This document shows, in pieces, positions 38,495 through 39,756 of a stretch of DNA of 64,000 nt. How positions within the stretch are numbered: the stretch's first letter is position 1; every line of letters begins with the position of its first letter. The notes beneath the pieces are model-generated. The model was not told the DNA's origin. It saw only the letters and a program-made list of their open reading frames with translations, and made no database searches. Where the stretch lies: the NCBI RefSeq assembly GCF_055900595.2, contig NZ_CM148325.1. One strand, 5' to 3'. Position numbers and translations under genes: made by a program.

Positions 38495-39271
38495 ATGTCC
38501 GAAACAAAAAACGAACTTGAAGAGCTGCTGGAAAAAGCAGCAACTGAACCGGCGCACCGCCCGGCCTTTTTCCGTACTCTACTGGAATCCACTGTCTGGG
38601 TACCAGGTACGGCGGCGCAGGGCGAGGCAGTGGCTGAAGATAGCGCGCTTGATTTACAGCACTGGGAAAAAGAAGACGGTACCAGCGTCATTCCTTTTTT
38701 CACCTCGTTAGAAGCACTGCAACAGGCGGTTGAAGACGAACAGGCGTTTGTCGTAATGCCCGTTCGCACATTGTTTGAGATGACCCTTGGCGAAACGCTC
38801 TTCCTTAATGCCAAACTGCCAATCGGTAAAGAATTTATGCCGCGTGAAATCAGTTTGTTGATTGGTGAAGAAGGAAATCCGCTGAGTAGTCAGGAAGTAC
38901 TGGAAGGCGGCGAATCGCTGATATTATCGGAAGTCGCAGAGCCGCCAGCACAAATGATTGATTCACTTACCACCTTATTTAAAACCATTAAGCCGGTGAA
39001 GCGTGCTTTTATTTGTTCAATTAAAGAGAACGAAGAGGCACAGCCTAATTTACTTATTGGCATTGAAGCCGATGGCGATATCGAAGAAATTATTCAGGCG
39101 GCGGGAAGTGTAGCGACCGATACATTACCTGGTGATGAACCAATAGATATTTGCCAGGTGAAAAAAGGGGAAAAAGGAATTAGCCACTTTATTACCGAAC
39201 ATATTGCGCCATTCTATGAACGTCGTTGGGGTGGATTCCTGCGTGATTTTAAACAGAATCGAATAATTTAA
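38495..39271 (+). CDS. sseB: SseB (enhanced serine sensitivity) family protein
   Basis: 258 aa from the ATG at 38495. Confidence 0.88.
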   Translation: MSETKNELEELLEKAATEPAHRPAFFRTLLESTVWVPGTAAQGEAVAEDSALDLQHWEKEDGTSVIPFFTSLEALQQAVEDEQAFVVMPVRTLFEMTLGETLFLNAKLPIGKEFMPREISLLIGEEGNPLSSQEVLEGGESLILSEVAEPPAQMIDSLTTLFKTIKPVKRAFICSIKENEEAQPNLLIGIEADGDIEEIIQAAGSVATDTLPGDEPIDICQVKKGEKGISHFITEHIAPFYERRWGGFLRDFKQNRII

Positions 39272-39276
39272 AATAT

Positions 39277-39294
39277 GCCGCCCCAAAGGGCGGC
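39277..39294. terminator. hairpin terminator shared by sseB (plus strand) and the ryfA-like transcript (minus strand)
   Basis: gccgccc-caaa-gggcggc; the U-run is on the minus-strand side only. Confidence 0.6.
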
Positions 39295-39302
39295 ATTCGG
39301 GC

Positions 39303-39440
39303 TTACTTGCTGTTCTGAAGGTTGTTAACCATCAGTAAATTGTTGCCGGAGGGACTCCGGTTATTATTTACCTCGGTTAACAGCGCACCAGAAACAATAA
39401 GTACGATACAGAAGCACCGTATCTTCATTGTGCGGTCCAT
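39303..39440 (-). CDS. small hydrophobic peptide inside the ryfA-like transcript (TimP-like type I toxin candidate)
   Basis: Minus-strand ORF MDRTMKIRCFCIVLIVSGALLTEVNNNRSPSGNNLLMVNNLQNSK; one transmembrane-like segment; an alternative start at M5 (39428) gives 41 aa; below the 60-aa cutoff of the ORF track. Confidence 0.4.
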   Translation of the reverse strand: MDRTMKIRCFCIVLIVSGALLTEVNNNRSPSGNNLLMVNNLQNSK

Positions 39441-39655
39441 GCGAAGACCGCATCACGACAGCACCACTGGCGATATTGCCGCGATAGCAAGCGCTGTGGG
39501 GTGCCTGCATTTACGGTCATGGAACATCCTTTCCTAAAGCCAGCGCCCGTTTGCGAGACGGCGAAAAGGGCCGTCACGAATAATACTCTCATATTTGAAT
39601 AATTACTCTATTTATTATCTTGACTTAGCCAGGCATAAAAGAGAGTATTTCAACA

Positions 39656-39756
39656 CTGTGGGGTGCCTGCGTTGCTCCGGCAACACAAGTCAACCTGCTG
39701 GAAAGGCCGCGAACCAGACCAGCAATAAAAAACCGCCAAATTTGGCGGTTTTTTAT
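39656..39756 (+). ncRNA. putative antisense-type sRNA (RyfB/TimR-like) divergent from the ryfA-like gene
   Basis: UP-like AT tract and -35 TTGACT (39620-39625) upstream; ends at the strong terminator at 39732-39756; the 5' region ctgtggggtgcctgc is perfectly complementary to the ryfA-like 5' UTR at 39494-39508. Confidence 0.4.
39725..39756. terminator. bidirectional rho-independent terminator (sseA 3' end and the plus-strand sRNA)
   Basis: A6-accgccaaa-t-tttggcggt-T6. Confidence 0.8.

Follow-up and report, generated by a model that had tools for sequence, protein, structure and literature searches.

Two bodies of work bear on the locus treated here. One concerns the timP/TimR pair of Salmonella enterica (formerly ryfA/STnc2070; Andresen et al. 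2020, Eleftheraki & Holmqvist 2024, Eleftheraki et al. 2026), where overproduced TimP inserts in the inner membrane and causes leakage, and where mutation of the timP start codon removes toxicity at an unchanged mRNA level (PMC7667032). The other treats RyfA as a regulatory small RNA (sRNA) in stress resistance and virulence. The DNA analysed here is a stretch of 64,000 nucleotides (nt) from NCBI RefSeq assembly GCF_055900595.2 (contig NZ_CM148325.1), hereafter the window, in which the gap between sseB and sseA was very probably (about 0.93) the chromosomal timP/timR (ryfA/ryfB) type I toxin-antitoxin locus of Escherichia coli, in its CACCC allele. The locus is already known and annotated (RefSeq, K-12) and is not new, and three papers have worked out its mechanism. 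An earlier note on the same DNA had called it 'ryfA-like' and proposed a type I system of the TimP/TimR kind. The kind was correct, as indicated by the ryfA RNA family, the TimP family, the timR homologue and a covarying motif at the published site, whereas the likeness was understated, the locus being the timP/timR system itself.

The sseB-sseA gap and its two genes

Based on the open reading frame (ORF) scan and the RefSeq annotation, the sseB stop lies at 39271 and the sseA stop at 39771, leaving the 499-bp gap (39272-39770) that the earlier note had reported. The window is E. coli chromosome, and its genes hscA-fdx-iscX-pepB-sseB-[gap]-sseA-yfhM follow one another as in K-12. The position of the timP/timR locus between sseB and sseA was found in the ORFs, in the RefSeq annotation of an identical locus and in K-12, where the same gap is annotated with timR (b4811), ryfA (b4440) and timP (b4812). 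Several complete E. coli genomes carried positions 39270-39770 with 100% identity, and the region was matched in 5425 of 5426; approximately 587 of the 5425 possessed an allele at least 95% identical to that of the window, the rest being 80-90% identical. Identical E. coli RefSeq records carry the timP annotation at the coordinates of the window. For comparison of alleles, the window was set beside K-12, five further E. coli alleles, E. whittamii, Escherichia sp. E1V33 and two Citrobacter species. A pattern scan of genome contigs with GCGGTCNNNGCANNGACCGCACNANNAAG returned 6 loci, all from Escherichia or Citrobacter and none from Salmonella.

The minus strand encoded the timP mRNA, which is the ryfA RNA (Table 1). 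The Rfam family RF00126 (ryfA) matched 39574..39270 with 312.5 bits (gathering score 80) over the entire model (1-296 of 296), and this was the only ryfA copy in the window. Its 5' end was placed at A39574 by the start of the Rfam model and by alignment to the 5' end of K-12 ryfA, while the -10 region, GTA(T/C)TAT, was kept at the same position in 11 of 11 loci. The terminator consisted of a 9-bp GC-rich hairpin (39296-39275). A minus-strand unit of about 300 nt, running from TATTAT to a terminator with a U-run on that strand only, had been proposed from the letters, and the Rfam match and terminator scan returned it as a 305-nt RNA. The RNA had a fold z-score of -6.0 relative to shuffles, and identity among E. 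coli alleles was 92-97%, a hypervariable patch at nt 64-83 excepted.

Within this RNA, the reading frame spans 45 amino acids (aa) from the AUG at 39440 or 41 aa from the AUG at 39428 (MKIRCFCIVLIVSGALL...). The hydrophobic ORF of 41-45 aa described earlier was recovered in both versions, of which the 41-aa start is favoured because RefSeq and NCBIfam support it: a RefSeq coding sequence (CDS), 'small toxic inner membrane protein TimP', is placed at these very coordinates in a locus of 100% identity, and the NCBIfam model NF040796 (toxic_TimP) matched residues 1-39 with 82.6 bits against a cut-off of 45. On the Kyte-Doolittle scale, TimP residues 5-17 had a mean hydropathy of +2.9 and the other residues one of -1.1; judged by hydropathy, the N-terminus is a predicted hydrophobic, signal-like segment followed by a polar remainder. 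Conservation of the ORF, the absence of which the earlier note would have taken as a refutation, was borne out in 11 of 11 homologous loci, all with an intact frame (41 aa in Escherichia, 38 aa in Citrobacter). Across these loci the N-terminus was conserved and the C-terminus variable, as reported by Andresen et al. (PMC7667032).

On the plus strand, the TimR antitoxin sRNA was delimited by alignment to the 100-nt K-12 timR and was 94.6% identical to it over nt 12-104; 12 TimR copies were aligned. The earlier proposal of an RNA of roughly 100 nt, with a TTGACT promoter and a strong terminator, held in each element, the RNA being the homologue of K-12 timR with a 15-bp terminator hairpin. The promoter elements, TTGAC(T/A) with GAGTAT, GACTAT or GATTAT at fixed spacing, were conserved in 11 of 11 loci. 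The TimR fold had a z-score of -4.0, and in the centroid structure the 5' end was mostly unpaired, followed by two internal hairpins and the terminator. No Rfam family was found for TimR, the sub-threshold matches (sraL, AgrB, RNAI and others) all being due to the terminator hairpin. As a self-match on the opposite strand revealed, this terminator is a 38-nt perfect palindrome (39722-39759) with T-runs on both strands; it is therefore bidirectional and could also end the convergent sseA. A second ryfA copy was considered, since many genome-search records showed two 'places', and was rejected because the second place was this palindrome matching itself.

The two genes are divergent and non-overlapping, with 82 bp between the 5' ends of TimR and timP, and their complementarity resides in a separate copy of a motif. 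The locus accordingly does not fit the cis-antisense type I arrangement (hok/sok type), in which the antitoxin comes from the opposite strand of the toxin gene and overlaps it.

The TimR-timP duplex and its covariation

The 15-mer CTGTGGGGTGCCTGC occurred exactly at 39494-39508 and 39656-39670, and had no other match in the window even when 2 mismatches were allowed. It is not the generic repeat that the earlier note had named as a possible refutation. The exact complementarity that it had described between the motif and the 5' untranslated region (UTR) of the toxin mRNA was extended to an uninterrupted 18-bp helix, counting one G·U pair, between TimR nt 2-19 (39656-39673) and timP mRNA nt 64-81. 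The site lies 66 nt upstream of the timP start codon, and the TimR site of Salmonella has the same position and length (18 nt, stem-loop 2; PMC7667032).

Comparison of alleles showed timP nt 64-83 (39494-39513) to be the only fast-evolving patch in an otherwise conserved mRNA, with the neighbouring TimR 5' end changing in step. Covariation was analysed over 20 candidate intermolecular pairs in 10 distinct Escherichia and Citrobacter sequences; Citrobacter amalonaticus L005 was excluded because its ryfA has a rearranged 5' region and a search for a TimR partner gave none. Standard pairs filled 95% of the duplex cells in the 10 alleles, compared to 28-54% in slid registers. Two-sided (compensatory) changes were detected at 8 of the 20 duplex pairs, and the observed covariation score was reached by none of 500 shuffles. 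Cognate duplexes between the TimR 5' end and the leader had energies of -33 to -44 kcal/mol, while cross-class pairs mostly had -13 to -32. Whole-length RNAduplex comparisons (TimR paired with timP or with each window segment) were dropped since they ignore intramolecular structure and yield very large non-specific duplexes (shuffled TimR -62.7 ± 4.9, observed -68.3), and the duplex evidence was taken instead from a contiguous-helix search and from duplexes of the 5' end only. By computation alone, and independently, the allele comparison confirms the TimR-timP duplex.

These data also bear on the proposal that the 15-nt repeat is chance or generic and the plus-strand 'RNA' merely the bidirectional sseA terminator, with no regulatory role. 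The terminator is indeed palindromic and lies 13 nt past the sseA stop, and the consensus scan called no promoter upstream of the motif. Set against this, the motif is confined to two sites in 64 kb and varies in step on both sides across alleles, TTGAC(T/A) and the -10 element are conserved upstream of it, and the homologous RNA was detected and functional in Salmonella and Shigella (PMC7667032, PMC5333039). The covariation effectively refutes this explanation, which keeps next to no probability.

Escherichia harbours at least three covarying TimR/timP classes, and two more come from Citrobacter. Class A, that of the window, combines GGGGUG in TimR with CACCC in the timP patch; class B, found in K-12, combines GAAGCA with TGTTT; class C, found in E. 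coli 323_BP0014, combines GAGACGCGC with CGCGT. Roughly 11% of complete E. coli genomes belong to class A. This variation is not new, because Fris et al. 2017 had already listed the variable-region variants TGTTT, CGCGT, CCCCC and CACCC (PMC5333039). In Shigella dysenteriae, RyfB1 lowers RyfA1 and not RyfA2 (PMC5333039). Under a second, milder reading, if it holds, the three Escherichia pairing classes would be functionally orthogonal and maintained by selection. In the excluded C. amalonaticus L005 locus (8069-8340), a stretch similar to the TimR body in antisense stood in place of the first ~60 nt of ryfA, no TimR partner being found upstream; this locus may be rearranged or inactivated.

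Leader structure and the proposed translational switch

In Salmonella, the Shine-Dalgarno sequence (SD) is sequestered in stem-loop (SL) 4 and a 7-bp pseudoknot between SL1 and SL3 is needed for timP translation; TimR, by binding SL2 in the active conformer, breaks up the pseudoknot, and the timP mRNA is unprocessed (PMC11228461). An additional site 2-4 interaction opens SL4 and frees the SD (PMC13000454).

The predicted fold of the window leader contained SL2 (nt 67-88, which holds the TimR site), SL3 (nt 90-123) and SL4 (nt 124-143). The SL4 sequence was nearly invariant across loci, and the GGA in its 3' arm (GGACCGC), 8-10 nt upstream of the AUG, is likely the SD in this model. Nucleotides 30-36 and 104-110 can form 7 bp with one G·U pair, a pairing retained by the one-sided Citrobacter variant CACUGGU, and the second of these segments was invariant in 12 of 12 aligned sequences. 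Another 7-bp pseudoknot candidate was present with four G·U pairs. No two-sided covariation was observed at the candidate pseudoknot and site 2-4 pairs in this small allele set. By position and length, the candidate pairs may correspond to the published Salmonella pseudoknot and site 2-4 interaction.

Following this model, the minus strand would yield a 305-nt mRNA whose 146-nt structured leader precedes the 41-aa TimP, with the SD presumably locked in SL4, by homology with Salmonella. Translation would need both the SL1-SL3 pseudoknot and a site 2-4 interaction opening SL4. The first ~18 nt of TimR would pair with leader nt 64-81 in SL2, and this binding would destabilise SL2 and the pseudoknot, so that initiation would be blocked without RNA processing. 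From the experiments in Salmonella and Shigella, we infer that the window allele is transcribed, that its TimP is toxic at the membrane and that its TimR represses timP.

The leader also contained a reading frame (39425-39520, minus strand) with an AUG at nt 55-57, AAGGA 6 nt before it, and 31 codons that cross the TimR site and end in a UGA overlapping the timP start (AUGA). By our estimate, the chance of an open frame of 31 codons is roughly 0.2. The frame opens with ATG in class A, in locus L011 and in the two Citrobacter, and with GTG in K-12; class C lacks a start codon there (GCG). In Citrobacter MGH106 it ends at nt 79-81, as happens in Salmonella. If it were translated, some E. coli alleles could possess a mok/hok-like translational coupling, which TimR, pairing 7 nt downstream of the upstream AUG, would block and which would add to or partly replace the pseudoknot switch; we consider this highly doubtful. 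The leader frame is unlikely to matter to timP because its start is missing in class C, a frame of this length could arise by chance, and the Salmonella frame is dispensable, mutation of its start having no effect (PMC11228461).

The conservation of the leader and of the ORF is also relevant to the proposal that the 305-nt RNA is mainly or additionally a trans-acting regulatory sRNA (RyfA), with RyfB/TimR setting its level and the ORF secondary, in other words a dual-function RNA. In Shigella dysenteriae, RyfA phenotypes comprise lower ompC and less cell-to-cell spread (PMC5333039), further reports on RyfA concern uropathogenic and avian pathogenic E. coli and ProQ binding (PMC8205139, PMC13188913, PMC10664665), and K-12 ryfA is still annotated as 'small regulatory RNA' beside timP. 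As opposed to this, the reading frame is unbroken and is recognised by a curated protein-family model, the Salmonella start-codon mutation abolishes toxicity without altering mRNA abundance (PMC7667032), and the translational switch accounts for the conserved leader; moreover, the RyfA literature cited demonstrates no direct RyfA target duplex. Such a main or additional regulatory role is rather unlikely, and it is compatible with the toxin-antitoxin reading.

For the timP/timR toxin-antitoxin reading itself, the identity of both genes, their synteny, the duplex with its covariation and the ORF conservation are established by computation. Several points weigh against it. A simple consensus promoter scan of the gap called no promoter on either strand, the timP -10 being missed because there is no good -35 and the timR promoter because its 8 of 12 matches fell just under the threshold. 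The candidate pseudoknot and site 2-4 pairs were matched to Salmonella by position and length only. Expression, toxicity and repression have been observed for other alleles only. Fris et al. 2017 detected no protein from Shigella ryfA1, but the ORF that they examined was another one, of 30 aa (PMC5333039). Finally, a Salmonella ΔtimR strain showed no growth defect at native expression (PMC7667032), so that 'toxin' names an overexpression phenotype.

As a discovery, the locus carries little weight; its value is that of a positive control for reading raw sequence, since a reader given only the letters recovered a non-overlapping type I pair including the antitoxin pairing motif. Three further Rfam matches above the gathering score were present elsewhere in the window, namely GlmY (145 bits), the iscRS stability element (118 bits) and sroE (110 bits).

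Table 1. Features of the timP/timR locus and other RNA elements of the window. Positions are those of the window; nt numbers refer to the timP mRNA.
Feature	Position	Strand	Basis or remark
timP mRNA (ryfA RNA), 305 nt	39270..39574	-	From the 5' end A39574 to the U-run past the terminator
timP promoter, -10 TATTAT	39580..39585	-	Reverse complement read from sequence; 5 nt upstream of the 5' end
timP CDS, 41 aa and stop, MKIRCFCIVLIVSGALLTEVNNNRSPSGNNLLMVNNLQNSK	39303..39428	-	ORF scan; AUG at nt 147, leader of 146 nt
timP intrinsic terminator hairpin, then AUAUUUU (minus strand only)	39275..39296	-	Terminator scan, fold, terminal hairpin of the Rfam consensus structure
TimR-binding site in timP 5' UTR, nt 64-81, stem-loop 2	39494..39511	-	15-mer copy, 18-bp helix, covariation
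CACCC variable patch, nt 72-76		-	Within the TimR-binding site
Candidate pseudoknot site 1, nt 30-36, CGCUGGC, upper stem-loop 1	39539..39545	-	Complementarity
Candidate pseudoknot site 3, nt 104-110, GCCAGUG, stem-loop 3 loop	39465..39471	-	Complementarity
Candidate site 2, nt 57-63, GACCGUA	39512..39518	-	7 bp, one G·U, with the SL4 5' arm, nt 123-129 (39446-39452)
Stem-loop 4, nt 124-143, 7-bp hairpin	39432..39451	-	Minimum free energy and centroid folds
TimR antitoxin sRNA, ~100 nt	~39655..39754	+	Ends set by alignment to K-12 timR
timR promoter, -35 TTGACT (39620-39625), 17-nt spacer, -10 GAGTAT (39643-39648)	39620..39648	+	Read from sequence
TimR 5' pairing region, CUGUGGGGUGCCUGCGUU	39656..39673	+	15-mer copy, helix search, covariation
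TimR terminator, 15-bp hairpin then U-run	39724..39757	+	Fold
GlmY	2083-2230		Rfam
iscRS stability element	31785-31894		Rfam
sroE	52423-52514		Rfam

Comparison with known systems

Among type I pairs, zorO/orzO, tisB/istR-1 and shoB/ohsC possess, as does timP/timR, a small hydrophobic toxin that an adjacent divergent sRNA represses by way of ~18 nt of complementarity in the 5' UTR. Their sequences are unrelated to those of timP/timR. The comparison with zorO was also drawn in the Shigella study (PMC5333039). The toxin mRNAs of these three systems need 5' processing before they can be translated, whereas the timP mRNA is unprocessed and is controlled by a structural switch (PMC11228461).

The Salmonella system and the window locus belong to the same two families (RF00126 and NF040796). 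Both have an ORF start at approximately +145 to +147 and an sRNA of ~100 nt, divergent and without overlap, that pairs by its 5' end with 18 nt in SL2; the SD in SL4 is predicted in the window, and its pseudoknot and site 2-4 segments are candidates. They differ in the length of TimP (41 aa in the window, 38 aa in Salmonella), in the pairing sequence, in the lack of an STM2534-like gene between timR and sseA in the window, and in the leader frame, which runs for 31 codons to the AUGA overlap in the window but for 8 codons in Salmonella, with the stop at nt 77-79. The toxicity, repression and switch experiments were all performed on the Salmonella allele.

Shigella dysenteriae RyfA1/RyfB1 and RyfA2/RyfB2 represent the same RNA pair, with a variable region that overlaps the RyfB site (PMC5333039). 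The CACCC of the window is one of the four variants of Fris et al. 2017 and falls in their 'ryfA1-like' group (PMC5333039). S. dysenteriae has two tandem copies and the window one, and Fris et al. 2017 took RyfA as non-coding (PMC5333039).

K-12 possesses the same genes in the same gap, with a TimP that differs at 4 of 41 residues, the TGTTT patch, and GAAGCA in TimR where the window has GGGGUG. Between timR and ryfA it also has 318 bp more, which puts the two 5' ends 400 bp apart, compared to 82 bp in the window. In this extra DNA (L002 1957-2355) lay a truncated remnant of the ryfA 5' part together with its promoter, an Rfam IS128 element (L002 2016-2224, 261 bits) and another timR-like copy that has a terminator of its own. 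That copy's 5' end is of the CGCGT-pairing class and is not complementary to K-12's own timP leader; from its sequence, the copy appears to be an orphan antitoxin, the leftover of a tandem duplication that has decayed.

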